A stretch of DNA of 7,370 nucleotides from a virus (taxonomy: Duplodnaviria; Heunggongvirae; Uroviricota; Caudoviricetes), in the IMG/VR virus record IMGVR_UViG_2703718811_000008, positions 1-7,370 of that record. One strand, given 5' to 3'. The notes under the pieces were generated by a model that made no database searches, was not told the DNA's origin, and saw only the letters and a program-made list of their open reading frames with translations. The translations under genes were made by a program, and so were the position numbers. This document shows, in pieces, positions 1 to 7,370 of this stretch. The stretch's first letter is position 1. The number at the start of each line of letters is the position of its first letter.

Positions 1-104
1 GGACTGCCAAACGGCTGCCAGCCCTCCCTCAGTTTTTGTGTCAGTCGCTCCGCAAGGTCTGACGGAGACGCCGCCCTGACCACGTCATAGTGTTTAAATG
101 CCAT
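1..104 (-). CDS. Small phage protein, 5' part only (gene runs off the left edge); tentatively DUF1737-like, the type often found just upstream of lambdoid lysis genes
   Basis: ATG at 104..102 with GGAGG (RC of 109-113) 4 nt upstream; frame stays open to position 1; translation MAFKHYDVVRAASPSDLAERLTQKLREGWQPFGS...; absent from ORF track because under 60 aa inside the window. Family assignment is from memory of an EGW.P.G-type motif. Confidence 0.45.
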   Translation of the reverse strand, partial: MAFKHYDVVRAASPSDLAERLTQKLREGWQPFGS

Positions 105-283
105 TATTCCTCCCCTTTCCGGGATTTTCCTCAACAGTTGCGGGCCACGGTCCGGCTACACGGAGAATCAAAAGAGGAGAACCGCAGCCCGCAAAACGAA
201 AAAGGCCGCGCAGTTGCGCAGCCTTATAAACCCTGGTTAAAATCCACACGATAAAAATGACAATGCAAGTATCTCATGCTGTT

Positions 284-309
284 GCCCGAACCCACTCGGG
301 CTTTTTTTG
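284..309 (+). terminator. Rho-independent terminator (plus strand)
   Basis: Stem GCCCGA (284-289) / TCGGGC (296-301), loop ACCCAC, followed by T7 (302-308). Confidence 0.6.
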
Positions 310-310
310 C

Positions 311-340
311 ATAAAAAAATCCCCTCCGGAGAGGGGATTT
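311..340 (-). terminator. Rho-independent terminator (minus strand)
   Basis: Perfect 8-bp stem ATCCCCTC (319-326) / GAGGGGAT (331-338), loop CGGA; on the minus strand the hairpin is followed by T7 (RC of A-run 312-318). Confidence 0.6.
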
Positions 341-649
341 GCTTGTGTGAACATTTACATTGCATAACTGCATGGTGCCGGGTGCCTCCCGGTGAATTCA
401 GTATCAGCACCTGAATCCGCGATTATCACATATACCTACTTGCTGATTGCCCCTCCGCACAGGGGGATTCACCATGCGAGATTATTTTTAACAAAACGAC
501 GGGTTATTATCCAGTACCCAACATAATGAAATGTGATGCTTTTAACATTTTTCACAACCCGAGCTTAATGATAATCGCTTTATTAACACCCCAGTTTCAT
601 GGCGAGTTTAAATTTCTGCTTGTACCACTCTAGTTTAATATCAAAAATA

Positions 650-784
650 TCAGTTATCGATAAGAATATAGTAAACAAATAAACACATCCCGAGAAAACC
701 AATAACTATCATAGCTAATGCCAGCATAAATATTTGTTGTATACTTATTTTTACCGATGAAAGGTAACGCAGGAAAATGCTCAT
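650..784 (-). CDS. Candidate small single-TM membrane peptide (44 aa)
   Basis: ATG at 784..782 with GGGGA 7 nt upstream (RC of 785-800 = TTATGGGGACAGTATA); translation MSIFLRYLSSVKISIQQIFMLALAMIVIGFLGMCLFVYYILIDN, stop TGA at 650-652. This is the C-terminal part of track ORF 650..976, whose upstream part overlaps the tRNAs and is rejected. Very AT-rich, so could be a chance ORF. Confidence 0.3.
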   Translation of the reverse strand: MSIFLRYLSSVKISIQQIFMLALAMIVIGFLGMCLFVYYILIDN

Positions 785-807
785 TATACTGTCCCCATAA
801 TCCTCTA

Positions 808-882
<75 letters not shown>

Positions 883-883
883 A

Positions 884-960
884 TGGTGCGCCATACTGGA
901 TTCGAACCAGTGACCGATTGCTTAGAAGGCAATTGCTCTGTCCAACTGAGCTAACAGCGC
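884..960 (-). tRNA. tRNA-Arg (anticodon UCU, reads AGA), CCA encoded
   Basis: RC of 884-960 = GCGCTGTTAGCTCAGTTGGACAGAGCAATTGCCTTCTAAGCAATCGGTCACTGGTTCGAATCCAGTATGGCGCACCA. Canonical cloverleaf: D-arm GCTC/GAGC, anticodon stem ATTGC/GCAAT with loop CTTCTAA, T-arm ACTGG-TTCGAAT-CCAGT. Similar to but distinct from E. coli argU as recalled. Confidence 0.9.
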
Positions 961-964
961 TTCG

Positions 965-1038
965 TGCCCCTGCCATGTTTGAACCGGCGACCTGGCGGTT
1001 ATTAACCGCTCGCTCTGACCATTAGGGCTAAAGGGGCA
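965..1038 (-). tRNA. Degenerate tRNA-like element (possible pseudo-tRNA), no CCA encoded
   Basis: RC of 965-1038 = TGCCCCTTTAGCCCTAATGGTCAGAGCGAGCGGTTAATAACCGCCAGGTCGCCGGTTCAAACATGGCAGGGGCA. Perfect 7-bp acceptor-like stem TGCCCCT/AGGGGCA, T-loop-like GGTTCAAAC, anticodon-like loop TTAATAA (nominal AAU). But the D-stem has a mismatch, there are 3 nt between acceptor and D-stem, and the T-stem has a G-A pair. Sits 4 nt from tRNA-Arg. Confidence 0.35.
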
Positions 1039-1309
1039 ATAAGTTTCTTTAAAAACAGCATGCATATGCCTGCTATATAATCCATACTAACTTTTATTAA
1101 AAACAAATTCAACAAAATCAAGGTTAGCGATACTTCTTTATCTAATAGCAACATTAATTACTATTGTGTGATTTTGATGATACTCCCTATTAAAAAACTC
1201 TTCCATTAGCACAATGAGTGCTCAGCTATCTATTGAAATAAATGAGCACAAGAGGTATACATATCTCCACAGCAGACATTCTATCTAAAAGATCACAAAA
1301 ACAGACATC

Positions 1310-1657
1310 ATGATAAAAAATATTTTTATAATAATTTCAAGCATCCTCTGCATGGGGCTAATTGTGGAACATCCTCAAATCGACAGTGAAATATCGACAA
1401 ATGAAATAATCAATTGCCTTTCCAAGACAATTCAAGAAAGTGGTTATATAATGGATCTCAACGGCACCAAACCACCAATTAATGCAAAAGAATTCGCAAC
1501 ATATAGAATGTCAAAATACACCGGCTCATTCTGGATAGAGTATTCAACAGAAGGAAGACCAACAAGGAATGTTGGCATAATAAATGCAACAAATGATAAT
1601 TATAATACTTTGAATGATGCGTTACAATTTTGTATTAATAACATGACGAAATATTAA
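1310..1657 (+). CDS. Hypothetical small secreted or membrane-anchored protein (115 aa), AT-rich cargo gene
   Basis: ORF-track ORF; N-terminus MIKNIFIIISSILCMGLIV looks like a signal peptide or TM anchor; rest is hydrophilic and Asn/Thr-rich. Very AT-rich compared with the phage backbone. No strong SD before the ATG. No family recognised. Confidence 0.5.
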   Translation: MIKNIFIIISSILCMGLIVEHPQIDSEISTNEIINCLSKTIQESGYIMDLNGTKPPINAKEFATYRMSKYTGSFWIEYSTEGRPTRNVGIINATNDNYNTLNDALQFCINNMTKY

Positions 1658-1853
1658 CATCAACAATTAATATGTGTACATCCCCGTGAGCAAACCGTTC
1701 GTAATACCAGTGAGCAACAACAGCATGCGCTCCAACGTCTGAACGGCTTCGCCCATATGATATGGTTCAGCACATTAAAACGTTTACGCATCACGATTTC
1801 AATATCAGATGCCAGGCGATGTCCACAGAACAGGTAAAGACTTCCGGCTGGCT

Positions 1854-2013
1854 TTAACTACCCGACATAACGAGCTGGGTCAGTATTAACTGGCAGCGTT
1901 CGCGTGAAAGGTAAGTACTCTGCGCCATCTCCCCGACTGTCGCCGGGTCGTTAACACTTAATTCATTAAATAACACTCTGGCGGTTTCAGTCATATACGG
2001 CTGTTTCAGCATG
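1854..2013 (-). CDS. Small helix-turn-helix-like ORF (52 aa), possibly a truncated regulator remnant
   Basis: ATG at 2013..2011 with AGGGAAAAAG upstream; translation MLKQPYMTETARVLFNELSVNDPATVGEMAQSTYLSRERCQLILTQLVMSGS. The segment TVGEMAQSTYLSRERCQLILTQL has the pattern of an HTH recognition unit. The longer track ORF 1854..2195 is rejected because its extension contains a terminator hairpin. Confidence 0.35.
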
Positions 2014-2135
2014 TCTTTTTCCCTATTCCGGTTAACGTGACACACCAATAACTCTTGTCGAAAAAGCCAACAAGCTGAAAGACCGGTATTCACCACCACC
2101 AGCGCGTTTACTGAACTACTGAATGTTACAGACAT

Positions 2136-2165
2136 AAAAAAAGCCAGCCACAGGGGAAGGCTGGC
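2136..2165 (-). terminator. Rho-independent terminator (minus strand) downstream of the CPBP gene
   Basis: Stem GCCAGCC (2143-2149) / GGCTGGC (2159-2165), 9-nt loop; on the minus strand it is followed by T7 (RC of A-run 2136-2142). Confidence 0.55.
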
Positions 2166-2559
2166 AAACTCGTAGGGCAAAATGCTGTTACGCAAACTTC
2201 GTTACAGGGATATCCTGCAATACCTAAAATACACAACATTTAGACAACTACACAGTACCTCACTAAACTTTTAAGATTTTGTTATTAAATACAGTTATTC
2301 ACACTCTTACCTGATACGCAGTAATGCCCGTCTGGCCATGTAGAGTAACAACAGTCCGGGCAATGACAATCCATAGACACAAAAACCGCCCGCAGGTGGA
2401 TTTAGCAGTTTGGTACAGTAACCACTTTTAACATCATATTCTATAATTTACGTACGTAAATGCTTTACTACTCATTTTTAACCATTAATGGAGTGAATAT
2501 TATCCAGTGAGCCGTAAACCCCGTTCTTCAGGGCGTGGAGGATGTCAACAACAACATGT

Positions 2560-3378
2560 TCAATGATTTTTTAAGAATGGATAGGTAAAAAATAACAGGT
2601 GGCACAAATTCAACCCAAAATGAAAAAATGTAGCAACCCATAAGCGTCCACTAAACATCCATGCCATGCCATAAATCACTCCAGATAACATTGCAAACAG
2701 TACAAGTAACAAACCACCAGAATAATGATAAAGACCAAACAAAACTGAAGCGATAAACAATGCTACAAATGGATGTACAATCATAGAAAGACGCTGCTGA
2801 AGATATCCTCTGAAAAATGCTTCTTCAGCAAGAGAGACAAAAAACAAGTTGCTCAATATAAACTTTGGCAACCACTCCGGGAAATGAACCTCTGGTTTTA
2901 TTCCACCCAGTAAAACAGCTAAAACCAAAATAAATGGAACAGATAAAAAGAGCAAGGCCCACATTCCATAAGATACTTCGTACCTGAAATCGCTCTTAAA
3001 CAACCTGGGAAAAGATAACACCAATAAAAATGGCACCATGGCCTTATCAAAATTAAAATACATGGTGTATGGCGTACTAAACGGCCCGGTTATTACAGAA
3101 TTCAAAACCACAGGGTTATGAAAACCAGGCCAAAAGTGATATAGCAGCACAACAGATAATACAACTAAACAACTCTCCGTAACAATTCTACACCATGATT
3201 TCTGTGCCCACTTAACTTTTAACCAATACAATAGCCCAACGATTGTAAAGAGACCAAATGCCGGCCAATCTATAACTCCATTAGCGACACCCAAAACAAC
3301 AGATGCTATTAACAATAACAAAGAAAACAGTTTATATGCATTCAAACTTAGCAAGGATAAAGCCAGAACGCCCCACAT
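2560..3378 (-). CDS. CPBP-family (CAAX protease / Abi-type) intramembrane metalloprotease, 272 aa
   Basis: ATG at 3378..3376 with GGAGG about 6 nt upstream (RC of 3379-3395 = TTTTTGACGGAGGTTTT). Polytopic hydrophobic protein with the three CPBP motifs in order: EExxxR (AEEAFFRGY), FxxxH (FGLYHY), HxxxN (HFGLN). Gene is strongly AT-rich. Confidence 0.85.
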   Translation of the reverse strand: MWGVLALSLLSLNAYKLFSLLLLIASVVLGVANGVIDWPAFGLFTIVGLLYWLKVKWAQKSWCRIVTESCLVVLSVVLLYHFWPGFHNPVVLNSVITGPFSTPYTMYFNFDKAMVPFLLVLSFPRLFKSDFRYEVSYGMWALLFLSVPFILVLAVLLGGIKPEVHFPEWLPKFILSNLFFVSLAEEAFFRGYLQQRLSMIVHPFVALFIASVLFGLYHYSGGLLLVLFAMLSGVIYGMAWMFSGRLWVATFFHFGLNLCHLLFFTYPFLKNH

Positions 3379-3423
3379 AAAACCTCCGTCAAAAACAAAT
3401 CATCCCAAGATAACAATAACCAT

Positions 3424-3452
3424 TTATAATACAACTGTCATTTACAATGCAA
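3424..3452 (-). promoter_or_regulatory. Candidate sigma70 promoter for the CPBP gene (pR'-like late promoter or moron promoter)
   Basis: On the minus strand: -35 TTGCAT (3452..3447), 17-bp spacer, -10 TATAAA (3429..3424); about 45 nt upstream of the CPBP ATG, in the AT-rich Q-CPBP gap. Confidence 0.3.
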
Positions 3453-3495
3453 TGCTTACTACTCGTAAAAAATATAATAATAGTCAGAATCCTTC

Positions 3496-3519
3496 CTAGA
3501 TATTGCATGCAATATCTAG
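3496..3519. promoter_or_regulatory. Perfect 24-bp palindrome overlapping the Q stop codon; candidate protein-binding site
   Basis: CTAGATATTGCA|TGCAATATCTAG is exactly self-complementary; no U-tract on either strand, so not a classical terminator; overlaps the last Q codons and its TAG (3516-3518). Confidence 0.4.
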
Positions 3520-3884
3520 CATGCATCCATTTCCAGTGAAACATTAAGTGCCATTAACATCCCGTCAACAATACCCTCAGCCTTTTGAAGTTTTTTACCG
3601 ATATAACCATCCGAACAACCATGTTTTCTTGCCAAACTCATAAAAGTCATTCCAAATACGTAGTAATCAAGCAGCAATTCATGCAGTTCACTATTGTTCC
3701 GGTTCAGGCGCGCCATACACCCGCATATAATCATCGCGTCATCGTCACAACATTGCGGGCGGGATTTTATCTTTGCTGGAATAAGCCCCTTAAATCCGTT
3801 GGCAATAGACGACCATGTTACATCCTCATGGTTATTAGCTACCCATGCTCCCCAGTGTTCGAGAACCATCTGAATATCACGCAT
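3516..3884 (-). CDS. Late-gene antitermination protein Q (QuuD-like lambdoid Q family)
   Basis: ATG at 3884..3882 with GGAG 7 nt upstream; the track ORF starts 5 codons earlier at a TTG. Translation [34 protein letters not shown]...[16 protein letters not shown]... closely matches my recollection of E. coli DLP12 QuuD (YbcQ), including the Cys-rich zinc motif. Confidence 0.85.
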
Positions 3885-3901
3885 CAACTTTCTCCACAAA
3901 A

Positions 3902-4897
3902 TCAGGCCAGCACGCCAATTGCCAGCGCACGATCGATAAAACGAAATATCAGCTCCAGTTGGGAGCCATACTTTTCTTCAAATGCCACGGTATCCGCATG
4001 CAGCTCGTCGTGATGCTTTCTGCACAAAGGCAACACAAAAAGGTCATGCGCTTTTGTACCCATTCCACCCTGACCGTGGCCTATCAGGTGGTGGGGATCA
4101 TCAGCAGGCTTTCCACAACATGCACACGGCTGTGTCTTAACCCAGCGCGTGTACTTTTCATTAACCCAGCGGTGACGTTTTGGGCGTAACATAAAAGACT
4201 CCGGCGACTCCGGATCCACTTTCAGCGCCAGCACCTTTTTCGCTTTATCCTGGATGATGCTGGTGGCAGGAACCGAAGGAATAAGGTCACTTTCCCGGGT
4301 GACAGACGACACAACAGGCTTCGGTAATCTCAGTGCCTTACGGGCTGCACTTTCCGGTAAGGCATCCGCCAGGTCATTACGAACCAGCCACCAGCACAGT
4401 TCAGGCATTGTCACAACGTGACTATCATCAAAACCGAGATCCCGACGCACGACAGACAACACCCAGCGGGCACAGTTATCCGTTGCCATTGATTCCAGCC
4501 GTTCCGTGAACTGATCGCGCAGCTGGTTATCGCAGTGCCAGCACAGACGGATTGCGCCCGGCGCGTGTCGCATTGTGGTCATGTTCTCGCTGTGCCAGTC
4601 GGAATGAGGCCACTGGCAGCCTTTTTCACGAAGTAACCAGCTTTCAAGACATTCCACGCCACCAGCACGACGGATCACTGCCTCATTGCGGAACACGGCC
4701 CGAACGGCAGGATCATCCGCCAGCGGTTGTGATGCCGCCGGAACAGCACCACTGGCGAAAGATGAATAACGTTCCGGCTCAGGCTCCAGCAGGACACGCC
4801 CCTGCATAAACAGGGGCATCAGCTCTGAACCTGGCCTGAACAATACGATCCCCATACGCGGGGCAATTTCAGGGGTCAGTAGTGCTCTCACGGTCAC
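3902..4897 (-). CDS. DUF968-like prophage protein with C-terminal Cys/His (HNH-like zinc-binding) motif; YdfU-like position directly upstream of Q
   Basis: 331-aa ORF, stop TGA at 3902-3904. C-terminus [43 protein letters not shown] has C-x2-C...HH...PLC..HH...H spacing. Start uncertain: GTG at 4897, GTG at 4891 (better SD GAGG) or internal ATG. Confidence 0.75.
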
Positions 4898-4898
4898 C

Positions 4899-5708
4899 TC
4901 AATGAACGGTATCGAGCAGCTTTAACAGCTCAGGGAATCGGGATTCGAAGAAATGCGGCTGCGTCTCGCGCGGATTTGCGGGACTGGTGATGTTCTTGCC
5001 GAACATGCAGCCTTTCGCTGTCAGCGACCAGAATTTTTTGATGTTGTTAATCGCGGTACGGCTGTATCGTTCGCGCTGCTCGACGATCCCCAGCTTCACC
5101 ATCTGGTGATATGCCTGATTAGCCGTCAGGCGGATACCATACTGCTTCAGCAGTGCACTCAGTGACAGCGTAGGGCGACTTGAGCCATCGGGTGCATCGG
5201 CAGGAGCATCAATTGCATAGCGCGGAGCCAGATTCGGTAAGCCAACAGCCTCCTGGAGTTTCTGACAAGCCCCAAGCACAGATGAGTTAGACAGGTTTAA
5301 TTCCCGACGCATAAAGTCCAGCAGGATCACGCCAGCCTGCATCTTGTCAGCAGCCTGCCCGGATAATTTTTCCGGTGCGCTGGTTATCATATCGAAAGTA
5401 CGGATCACCTTCAGATGGAATGACGGGCTGATCCACATTGCATAGGCATACACCAGTTCTTTGCAGACATACGTCCCCTGGTTATTTCCGCCATTAATGA
5501 CGCTAACTGGTTGATTTTGTTCCAGAGGCGGAATTCCACCCTCGGTGAAAAGTTGTTCAATCAATTCACAGGTTTGCTTATTGGAGAGCCAGTATTTCGG
5601 GCGGTTTTTTTGTTCTCCCCCGGCTGCCCTGTGCAGATCGTTCAGGCTGTAACGCCCATAAGCATCACGACGAACTTCAATACCATCAATGACCATCAGA
5701 TTATTCAT
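4899..5708 (-). CDS. KilA-N domain protein (Roi / antirepressor-like), 269 aa
   Basis: ATG at 5708..5706 with AGGAG 9-10 nt upstream. N-terminus (VIDGIEVRRDAYGRYSLNDLHRA...GTYVCKELVYAYAMWISPSFHLKVI) matches the KilA-N/APSES pattern (GTWVHP..A..FA.WISPEF as recalled). Stop TGA at 4899-4901. Confidence 0.8.
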   Translation of the reverse strand: MNNLMVIDGIEVRRDAYGRYSLNDLHRAAGGEQKNRPKYWLSNKQTCELIEQLFTEGGIPPLEQNQPVSVINGGNNQGTYVCKELVYAYAMWISPSFHLKVIRTFDMITSAPEKLSGQAADKMQAGVILLDFMRRELNLSNSSVLGACQKLQEAVGLPNLAPRYAIDAPADAPDGSSRPTLSLSALLKQYGIRLTANQAYHQMVKLGIVEQRERYSRTAINNIKKFWSLTAKGCMFGKNITSPANPRETQPHFFESRFPELLKLLDTVH

Positions 5709-5727
5709 ACTTCGTTTCTCCTCTTAA

Positions 5728-5955
5728 TCAGGCGGCTGCACCCGCCGTTTTCTCGTACTTACTGATAGTGATCTCGACCTTCCCTCCCGGGATAACCGGT
5801 CCCCACTCCACCAGCATTCTTTTCACCTGACTGTCGTCTTCCCACACACCCGCGTGGGTCAGGGCGTCAAACAGCGCCTTGTTATAGTTGTCCAGATCGC
5901 GGATCCGGTTATCCCAGCATGGTTGCCACCTCCTGATTGGTTGGCGGAAAGCCAC
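5728..5955 (-). pseudogene. rusA: RusA Holliday-junction resolvase, C-terminal part only (5'-truncated)
   Basis: Frame translates to ...DNRIRDLDNYNKALFDALTHAGVWEDDSQVKRMLVEWGPVIPGGKVEITISKYE, matching the RusA C-terminal catalytic half (RRRDLDN...DALTKAGFWLDDAQV...GGRLELTITE as recalled). The frame is closed upstream, and the roughly 60 N-terminal residues expected for RusA are absent. The track's start is a GTG, and RusA-like sequence begins near 5915. Confidence 0.6.
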
Positions 5956-6019
5956 GCTCTTTCTGGTAAGAAATCAGCATATCCAGCACCTGCTGCTGGC
6001 ATTGAGTTAACGTCGTCAT
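5909..6019 (-). other. 36-codon ORF resembling the N-terminal start of a LexA-type DNA-binding domain; probable remnant at a mosaic junction
   Basis: ATG at 6019..6017 overlaps the TAA of the upstream gene (TAATG). Translation MTTLTQCQQQVLDMLISYQKERGFPPTNQEVATMLG aligns without gaps to LexA residues about 4-36 ([33 protein letters not shown], recalled), then hits TAA exactly where RusA similarity begins in the +1 frame. Confidence 0.3.
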
Positions 6020-6507
6020 TACGCCCCCACGTAATTCCCTGACAGATACCACTCATCACCCGATACAGCGCGCTTGCTGCTTTTCCGTAAACACTGCTCA
6101 CGACGCGCCAGAAAATTGTTTCGTTCTGGCTGGGAGTGGCTTTCACGGAATGCCGCCATCCACACGGTTGCAGCACGACGGTATAAGCCCCTGGACTCCA
6201 GTTCTTCAGCCTGGCGGGTCAGGCACAAAATCACCCGTGGATCGTTAGTGCCGACATAGAAATTGCGCACAGGTCTGGTTTCACGAACTGGTTGTGGTTC
6301 CGGCTCCTGCGCTCTCTCAGTCAGGCGCGGGAAATGTCTGCGTGTATCTCCTTCACAACGGTGAGCCACACGCCCACTCTGACGTAACTTGCTTGCTGAC
6401 TGCAGAACGCGCTGCCGTGAGTAACCTGCAAAAGCCTCCGCAATGTCTCCGGAAGTACACCCCGGATGGGCTTCAATGAATTTCTGAACGTCATTCAAAA
6501 GACTCAT
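6019..6507 (-). CDS. PerC-like transcriptional regulator with N-terminal winged-helix-like region (162 aa)
   Basis: ATG at 6507..6505 overlaps the TGA of the upstream replication gene (ATGA) and has GGGGGGG upstream. C-terminal LESRGLYRRAATVWMAAFRESHSQPERNNFLARREQCL matches the recalled PerC/Pch signature (LEARGLWRRAAARW...RRRKHCL). Confidence 0.65.
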   Translation of the reverse strand: MSLLNDVQKFIEAHPGCTSGDIAEAFAGYSRQRVLQSASKLRQSGRVAHRCEGDTRRHFPRLTERAQEPEPQPVRETRPVRNFYVGTNDPRVILCLTRQAEELESRGLYRRAATVWMAAFRESHSQPERNNFLARREQCLRKSSKRAVSGDEWYLSGNYVGA

Positions 6508-7370
6508 AATCCCCCCCTGAATCCTGCCGGGATCTGGCTGTAGTCCACGTTGTCGTAACTGGCTTTGAAGTACGGGTCTTCGCGTTTTTCGGTGTACGTG
6601 CTGACGGACGGCGATAAGCGCAGGGAAAGCTCATCCCATTTTTCCCGCAGCTTCGACGGGCTGAGCACGTTACGGCACCAGAACGGATCGCGACTGACGC
6701 GGCTGTACATCTCGCAGATTTGTTTATGAGTACGACCATCCTGCACACACATCAGGCGAATTTCGTTTGCCCAGGCTGTCCAGTTCGGTTCTTTGGGACG
6801 AACCACCTCGCCGTCACATTCGGCGGCATGCTCGTACAGGGCGATGATTTTTTTCCAGAGCCACTGTGCGCAGGTCAAATCATCCTGCGTCCCCCACTGG
6901 CGCTTTTTAGGACTGAATACAACCGCATCAGGATGGCGAGTTAAAAAATCCTGTTCAGCCGTCTGCGTGTCCGGTTGCGAAGCGTCCGGACGAGAAGTTT
7001 TTTTATCTGACGGATCATGTTTTGATTTTACTGACGGATCCCCACCAGATTCTGACGGGTGAAAACCCGCTTTTTTGCCAGATTTCGACGCATCAAATTT
7101 TGACGGGCCAGATTTTGATGCGTCAGATTTTGACGGGTCAGAATCTGACAGTTGAGAAAATGCCGCTGCCTGAAGCTTCGCAACGTTAAGCTGATAAACA
7201 TTCGACGCATTGCGGTTACCCTGGCGACGCGCCTTACGCGTTAACCAGCCTTCTGCTTCCAGCCGTGCGATAGCCGTTCTGACGGTACTCATCCCCGCGC
7301 CAATCTGGCGGGCAATGGTTTCAATTGATGGCCAGCACACACCTTTGAACCGCCCCGGAAATCCTGGAGA
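6504..7370 (-). CDS. Phage replication initiation protein (O-like; winged-helix N-terminal domain, repeat-encoded linker), 5' end beyond window
   Basis: Frame is open to the right edge (the track's start at 7340 is a GTG, not a true start). The N-terminal CWPSIETIARQIGAGMSTVRTAIARLEAEGWLTRKARRQGNRNASNVYQL fits the wHTH pattern of replication initiators. An internal Ser/Asp/Lys-rich low-complexity linker is encoded by the tandem DNA repeats. Position is upstream of a nin-like region and Q. Confidence 0.7.
   Translation of the reverse strand, partial: SPGFPGRFKGVCWPSIETIARQIGAGMSTVRTAIARLEAEGWLTRKARRQGNRNASNVYQLNVAKLQAAAFSQLSDSDPSKSDASKSGPSKFDASKSGKKAGFHPSESGGDPSVKSKHDPSDKKTSRPDASQPDTQTAEQDFLTRHPDAVVFSPKKRQWGTQDDLTCAQWLWKKIIALYEHAAECDGEVVRPKEPNWTAWANEIRLMCVQDGRTHKQICEMYSRVSRDPFWCRNVLSPSKLREKWDELSLRLSPSVSTYTEKREDPYFKASYDNVDYSQIPAGFRGGL
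7081..7155. repeat. Five direct 15-bp tandem repeats (iteron-like), with three looser copies at 7001-7060
   Basis: GATTTCGACGCATCA / AATTTTGACGGGCCA / GATTTTGATGCGTCA / GATTTTGACGGGTCA / GAATCTGACAGTTGA at exact 15-bp spacing. The core TGACGGGTCA is a TGAC/GTCA inverted repeat. Extra TGACGG copies at 7008, 7032 and 7053 flank an AT-rich patch (6996-7030). Confidence 0.8.

Follow-up and report, generated by a model that had tools for sequence, protein, structure and literature searches.

yfdN, a two-domain PerC-family gene coupled to an O-like initiator gene in the replication operon of a lambdoid prophage

The window is the whole stretch of 7,370 nucleotides that was analysed (positions 1 to 7,370 of IMG/VR virus record IMGVR_UViG_2703718811_000008, Caudoviricetes), presented as one strand. 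At 6019-6507 it contains an ORF of 162 codons plus stop, for which the original prediction had proposed a PerC-like regulator translationally coupled to a replication gene. The ORF is real and is encoded on the minus strand, which had been left unstated. It is an allele of yfdN, a gene that is already known and annotated. Its coding status is not a matter of chance, given matches to PF06069 (E = 1e-9) and to PHROG 1324 (E = 7e-78), exact copies of the protein in NCBI and recognisable distant relatives, and the gene in the window is intact. It lies directly downstream of an O-like gene with an HTH_36 domain, an arrangement with exceptions among the distant relatives. The features at the locus, in window coordinates, are as follows.

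7046 to 7158, no strand assigned: array of about six iteron-like 15-bp direct repeats (CAGATTTTGACGGGT) within the O-like gene
6504 to 7370, minus strand: lambda-O-like replication initiator gene with its 5' end outside the window (Pfam HTH_36 at the N-terminus; PHROG 391)
6511 to 6517, minus strand: G-run GGGGGGG, 3 nt 5' of the yfdN ATG, a putative Shine-Dalgarno-like sequence
6504 to 6507, minus strand: ATGA start/stop overlap of yfdN and the upstream replication gene, read from the sequence
6019 to 6507, minus strand: yfdN-type CDS (PerC family transcriptional regulator), 162 aa plus stop, supported by PF06069, PHROG 1324 and the PGAP name of the orthologue
6322 to 6507, minus strand: predicted N-terminal winged helix-turn-helix domain (aa 1-62)
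6241 to 6321, minus strand: variable linker predicted to be disordered (aa 63-89; pLDDT 43-61)
6061 to 6240, minus strand: predicted PerC/ANR-type three-helix, TPR-like domain (aa 90-149)
6022 to 6060, minus strand: conserved C-terminal tail, predicted to be unstructured, with the residues W-Y-L-S-G-N-Y-V-G (aa 150-162; pLDDT below 60)
5909 to 6019, minus strand: truncated LexA-DNA-binding-like gene (Pfam LexA_DNA_bind, E = 2e-7), the start of which overlaps the yfdN stop

YfdN is coupled translationally both to the lambda-O-like initiator upstream and to the gene downstream. The ATG of yfdN (6507-6505) and the TGA of the replication gene (6506-6504) form the ATGA that had been noted earlier and that can be read directly in the window, and the TAA of yfdN (6021-6019) overlaps the ATG (6019-6017) of the LexA-DNA-binding-like remnant as TAATG. 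The exact ATGA overlap is specific to the allele in the window. At 6504-6520 the window reads GGGGGGGATTATG where nearly all relatives have GGGGGTGAGCATG, and the closest relatives carry CAGGGGGTGAGCATGAGT at the junction, which leaves a 2-nt spacer or, in the PGAP annotation, a GTGA overlap that yields a protein of 164 aa. Through a T-to-G change, both the usual TGA stop and the GTG start are lost, so that the replication gene gains two codons and ends in the ATGA overlap. The place of the G-run upstream of the yfdN ATG is taken by GGGGG or GGAG in relatives. Among the 43 related loci with a yfdN-like gene in which the junction was checked, a long upstream ORF ends at -4, -1, +2, +3 or +5 nt from the yfdN-like start in 40. 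Between the O-like gene, yfdN and the next gene, the coding strand showed neither a sigma-70-like promoter nor an intrinsic-terminator-like site, which fits co-transcription as part of an early operon, as had been proposed for this gene.

The partner in this coupling is a genuine homologue of lambda O, as the claimed link to a replication gene implied. It matches PHROG 391 ("replication initiation O-like") with E = 6e-118, and its identity to lambda O is 31% overall (E = 8e-27) and 40% for the C-terminal domain; full-length relatives have 313 aa. Lambda ori lies inside O, and the repeat array at 7046-7158 within the O-like gene is, by analogy, probably an origin.

The C-terminal ends of O-type proteins fall into two forms. 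O-like initiators of modules lacking P end in DYSxIPxGFR[GS] (window 6507-6545; loci L039, L041, L047, L049 and L051), and in lambda and SEN34, in which P follows O, the O proteins have TDWIYGV[DE]L at this end. A host replication protein may dock on the DYSxIPxGFR[GS] tail. A strict association of the GFRG tail with yfdN was considered and rejected, since Kp4873-4, ST405-OXA48phi1.2 and locus L043 break the pairing.

The surroundings are those of a lambdoid prophage. Intact relatives have their genes in the order cI, cro, ymfL, (antirepressor), DUF4222, O-like, yfdN, (dam), lexA-like, rusA, kilA-N, DUF968 and Q, and the part from the O-like gene to Q holds down to 24-34% identity, with junctions of -4, -1 or +2. 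Compared with E. coli ET490 and OkiPb01678, the window lacks 413 bp, and the junction of this deletion, at 5906-5914, shows a 9-bp overlap. The deletion leaves only the first 36 codons of the lexA-like gene and the last 62 or so codons of rusA in different frames (5728-6019), which means that the prophage is damaged just downstream of yfdN. The allele in the window thus differs from other yfdN loci in that the next two genes downstream are truncated by this deletion, and it further differs in its length of 162 aa, its altered junction and the absence of dam downstream, the last shared with ET490.

Structure predictions were made with AlphaFold2 in two runs, using alignments of 14 and 27 rows, and gave the same layout in both. 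In these models YfdN consists of a winged helix, a flexible linker, a three-helix TPR-like domain of the PerC/ANR type and a conserved disordered tail. The winged-helix-like N-terminus of the original prediction is recovered as three helices and a beta hairpin at residues 3-60 (pLDDT 90-98). The helices of the C-terminal domain span residues 90-105, 109-122 and 126-143/149 (pLDDT 92-98), and both the linker (63-89) and the tail (about 150-162) have low pLDDT. The models did not fix how the domains are arranged relative to each other (pTM 0.40-0.48). The linker is also the stretch that varies most in sequence and in length in the alignments of close and of wider relatives (A1, A2). The tail behaves differently: W153, Y154, L155, G157, N158, Y159, V160 and G161 are invariant in close relatives, and the motif [LM][AS]G[RNH][FY]xG is kept in most distant ones. 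It is absent from canonical PerC and from the other short PerC-family proteins, which end in ...MG[IL]...FR. Comparison of the family profile with PDB sequences gave no match at E values up to 10, and a Foldseek search of viral models (BFVD) returned generic winged-helix matches only, among which the two-domain layout was not found. PADLOC gave no meaningful defence-system match for YfdN (GajB, E = 0.009, no qualifying stretch).

Membership of the PerC family, which the original prediction had derived from the letters, is borne out by the profile search. PF06069 (PerC) is the sole Pfam match of YfdN, and its 39 bits exceed the gathering threshold of 22.6. The match joins aa 98-151 to model positions 5-58 of 90, so that only the first 54 of the 90 positions are covered and the C-terminal ...MG[IL]...FR part is left unmatched. 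The signature had been placed at the end of the protein; the quoted residues ...EELESRGLYRRAATVWMAAFRESHSQPERNNFLARREQCLRKS... are indeed present at aa 101-143, but about 20 more residues follow, including WYLSGNYVG. In an alignment of YfdN with EPEC PerC and other PerC-family proteins (A3), the core A..LE..G..RRA...W...R...R..C is invariant and two types of tail are seen, ...MG[IL]...FR in PerC and the other short members and W[YC]L[AS]G.[FY].G in YfdN. Residues L103, R111, A112 and R136 of YfdN are invariant in alignment A2. PHROG 1324, named "transcriptional activator", matches the whole of YfdN (aa 1-161).

The same domain resembles the ANR family. Residues 96-142 of YfdN align with positions 5-51 of 54 of the ANR model NF033650 (E = 7e-5), although the score of 22.5 bits is below the curated NCBIfam cut-off of 32. 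EPEC PerC (pMAR7, positions 1995-2264 of locus L045) likewise gives a sub-threshold match over almost the whole ANR model (E = 0.0017), which supports one three-helix fold for the PerC and ANR families, and several short PerC-like proteins also have sub-threshold, full-length matches to it. The resemblance of PerC and ANR proteins has been remarked on before (PMC11773190). PerC is encoded beside the AraC-type regulator PerA, as ANRs are beside theirs.

A profile search of 1.84 billion representative proteins, with E values up to 0.001, recovered only 158 clusters. About 30 of these are full-length two-domain proteins of some 130-165 aa, down to about 24% identity and all with the same layout; the remainder, 55-104 aa long, are short proteins with a match to the C-terminal domain only. 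PF06069 was matched by 25 of 27 diverse two-domain relatives (E below 0.01). A scan of genome contigs for related loci gave only five, and three distant relatives used as single queries (P0164, P0130 and P0183) gave no loci in viral contigs. Clusters that contain the N-terminal domain only were considered as cases of natural domain shuffling, but this was rejected, as they come from copies of E. coli yfdN that are truncated or fused by deletion to neighbouring genes. In other genomes the N-terminus of yfdN is found fused to rusA, a methylase or other neighbours (clusters P0128-P0150 and P0138), a pattern of recurrent deletions. Members of the PerC family are also encoded by 258 plasmids and by N4-like lytic phages, which points to a general rather than an LEE-specific function.

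yfdN is the two-domain branch of the PerC family, which lambdoid prophages of the SfV/mEp460/ST64B-like kind carry in their early-right (replication) operon. YfdN of the K-12 prophage CPS-53 (KpLE1), gp44 of mEp460 and orf40 of SfV are the same gene, with the same architecture and the same place after an O-like gene; the window protein has 95-99% identity to E. coli YfdN. In many genomes PGAP gives the orthologue the name "yfdN: PerC family transcriptional regulator", and the exact 162-aa protein is held by NCBI as a PerC family transcriptional regulator on 93 contigs. A 1.7-kb segment that includes yfdN matches 3400 of 5426 complete E. coli genomes, with at least 80% of the segment present in 1539 of the 3400. 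Orthologues were found in 56 phage records; identity is mostly 94-99% in phages of E. coli and Shigella (mEp460, SfV orf40, SfII, SfIV and Stx2c phages) and about 68% to the homologue in Salmonella ST64B.

Experimental information on the gene is sparse. yfdN has been called "the K12 unique PerC homologue" and was deleted as a precaution from a K-12 ler-lacZ reporter strain, with no effect of yfdN reported (PMC5931665). Overexpression of K-12 yfdN altered glycogen accumulation in a screen (PMC2853380), which implies that the protein is active in some way. A 2.5-kb fragment of UTI89 containing yfdN2 and neighbouring genes caused filamentation when expressed, a phenotype that belongs to the fragment and is not tied to one gene. 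Beyond the glycogen phenotype and this fragment, no functional study of YfdN was found in the literature, nor was a published test of LEE1 activation.

Taken with the features of the characterised relatives, we give a probability of about one half to the reading that YfdN, expressed with the early operon, is directed to DNA and modulates nucleoid silencing or another regulator. YfdN would be made from the early rightward transcript upon derepression of the prophage, and the winged helix would target it to DNA. At that site the PerC/ANR-type domain would alter a nucleoid-protein or regulator complex rather than act by classical activation, and the conserved tail probably serves as a short motif on which a partner docks. 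The targets are more likely to be phage genes or general ones than LEE-specific ones. The proposed remodelling of a complex is modelled on Pch and Aar. Pch activates LEE1 by disrupting silencing by H-NS, StpA and Hha (PMC4764244). ANR proteins have three helices and make protein-protein contacts with AraC-type regulators and with H-NS (PMC4983702), and Aar binds H-NS and AraC-type activators. H-NS was not co-precipitated by PchA (Fukui et al., unpublished data), so that any molecular contact ascribed to the PerC fold is provisional, even in Pch.

The original prediction had gone further and suggested that the gene could let the prophage cross-regulate host genes, by analogy with PerC homologues that activate the LEE. 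The analysis gives no support to this, as LEE activation has been shown for PerC and PchABC only, and a role for YfdN as an activator of the Pch kind, by which the prophage would turn on ler/LEE1 or other virulence genes of its host, appears highly improbable. YfdN and PerC/Pch share the helical core A..LE..G.[YW]RRA...W...R...RR..C, YfdN passes the Pfam threshold, both reside on elements that move by horizontal transfer, and Uhlich et al. took the possibility seriously enough that they removed yfdN from the K-12 strain carrying their ler-lacZ reporter. LEE1 activation is established for PerC and the group-1 proteins PchA, PchB and PchC. YfdN, however, is only 32% identical to PerC over 56 aa (pairwise E = 2e-7) and lacks the C-terminal half of the family model. 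PerC (89 aa) and a Pch-like representative (103 aa) are single-domain proteins with a ...K....MG[IL]....FR C-terminus that YfdN does not have, and at 162 aa YfdN falls outside the single-domain size of the LEE1/ler activators (about 90-104 aa), to which it adds a DNA-binding-type winged helix and a different tail. PerC is encoded in the plasmid operon perABC (EPEC pEAF/pMAR7) and YfdN in a replication operon. PchD and PchE have little or no effect on the LEE, LEE1 fusions did not respond to the PerC-like genes of the islands EcCIEDL933 and EcCICFT073, and EcCIMP1_025 is a repressor of LEE1 (PMC11773190). YfdN is more divergent than any of these homologues, and since family members activate, do nothing or repress in assays, function cannot be transferred to it with confidence. 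The gene also bears a name given in the K-12 prophage CPS-53, and its segment matches more than half of the complete E. coli genomes in the search. The LEE is missing from most E. coli, K-12 among them. A location in a lytic early operon would further mean little expression in a repressed lysogen. It is this divergence, the match to most of the searched E. coli genomes and the lytic operon that lead us to rate LEE activation low. Repression of LEE1 by EcCIMP1_025 was suspected by its authors to be ANR-type action (PMC11773190), and it bears on another unlikely reading, namely that the C-terminal domain of YfdN is an ANR-like anti-activator that binds and inhibits an AraC/XylS-type or phage regulator, making YfdN mainly a repressor or anti-activator and not an anti-silencer. 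The nearly full-length, if sub-threshold, ANR match and a predicted three-helix domain of the kind predicted for ANRs speak for it. The ANR family, for example Aar of EAEC, does share a small three-helix module with YfdN, but ANRs are stand-alone proteins of less than 10 kDa that have no DNA-binding domain and accompany AraC-type regulators, whereas no AraC-family gene was found in the window or in the related loci examined, and the score of YfdN falls short of the family cut-off. EcCIMP1_025 was itself considered as a two-domain protein of the YfdN type, which was rejected because it is a single-domain protein of 93 aa.

The position of yfdN raises the question of a part in replication. It occupies the slot of P in lambda and SEN34, directly after and coupled to an O gene with a C-terminal domain 40% identical to that of lambda O, and the modules of mEp460, ET490 and distant relatives contain no recognisable gene for a helicase or loader, whether P, DnaC-like or DnaB-like. 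The O-like proteins of yfdN modules have the distinctive DYSxIPxGFRG tail in place of the TDWIYGV[DE]L of the P-using lambda and SEN34 proteins, the end of YfdN itself is a disordered glycine/aromatic motif loosely similar to that tail, and the UTI89 fragment, though not resolved to one gene, caused filamentation. YfdN could on these grounds be a replication accessory in the slot of lambda P, for example an adaptor that brings host DnaB or DnaB-DnaC to the origin, but we consider this quite unlikely. The likeness of lambda P and YfdN is one of position only, both being translationally coupled directly after an O-type initiator; there is no similarity in sequence or predicted fold, and searches of Pfam, NCBIfam, PHROGs and PDB sequences linked YfdN neither to P or DnaC nor to any other replication family. 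Related O-like genes also occur in phage records in which yfdN is absent or deleted, which weakens a role like that of lambda P. Klebsiella phage Kp4873-4 has an O-like C-terminal domain of 67% identity followed directly by dam, without yfdN, and the record of phage cdtI (positions 2871-2960 of locus L051) has an internal deletion that joins 26 N-terminal codons of yfdN to the YVG tail; the cdtI prophage has been described as inducible. In ST405-OXA48phi1.2 the GFRG tail is present but a different gene lies downstream. At locus L043 a yfdN-like gene follows a replication protein lacking the GFRG tail, at locus L041 two small ORFs separate the replication gene from the yfdN-like gene, and a two-domain relative in an integrase/AlpA island has no adjacent replication gene. 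With these exceptions and no similarity to a loader, an essential role for YfdN in replication is unlikely. A combination of the two ideas can be put forward only as a long shot. The YfdN branch would then be a lytic-cycle factor of P-less lambdoid replication modules and not a virulence regulator: its winged helix and [LM][AS]G[RN][FY]xG tail would dock at the origin or on the O-like initiator, whose DYSxIPxGFRG tail would replace the P-binding end of the lambda type, and the PerC/ANR domain would clear H-NS-type proteins so that replication or early transcription can start. If this were true, the PerC fold would have an ancestral function in phages, and the virulence regulators Pch and PerC would be later derivatives of it.

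For the window itself little changes, as yfdN is a common prophage gene that was already annotated. The name "PerC family transcriptional regulator" is a homology label and not a function, tested members of the family activating, ignoring or repressing LEE1. Establishing the role of YfdN would clarify what the PerC/ANR fold does for phages, be it anti-silencing, anti-activation or help in replication. One would also learn whether induction of the prophage rewires transcription in the host by way of yfdN, a gene that is carried in Stx2c phage records as well.

Some further genes of the window were recorded on the way. The KilA-N protein (4899-5708) has a weak PADLOC match to the candidate defence protein PDC-S22 (E = 1e-6), confined to aa 73-109. 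Downstream of the Q antiterminator gene (3516-3899) lie a gene for a 272-aa CPBP/Rce1-like membrane protease (2560-3378) and genes for tRNA-Gly(TCC) and tRNA-Arg(TCT) at 808-960. The region downstream of Q is where related Stx phages carry tRNAs and toxin genes.
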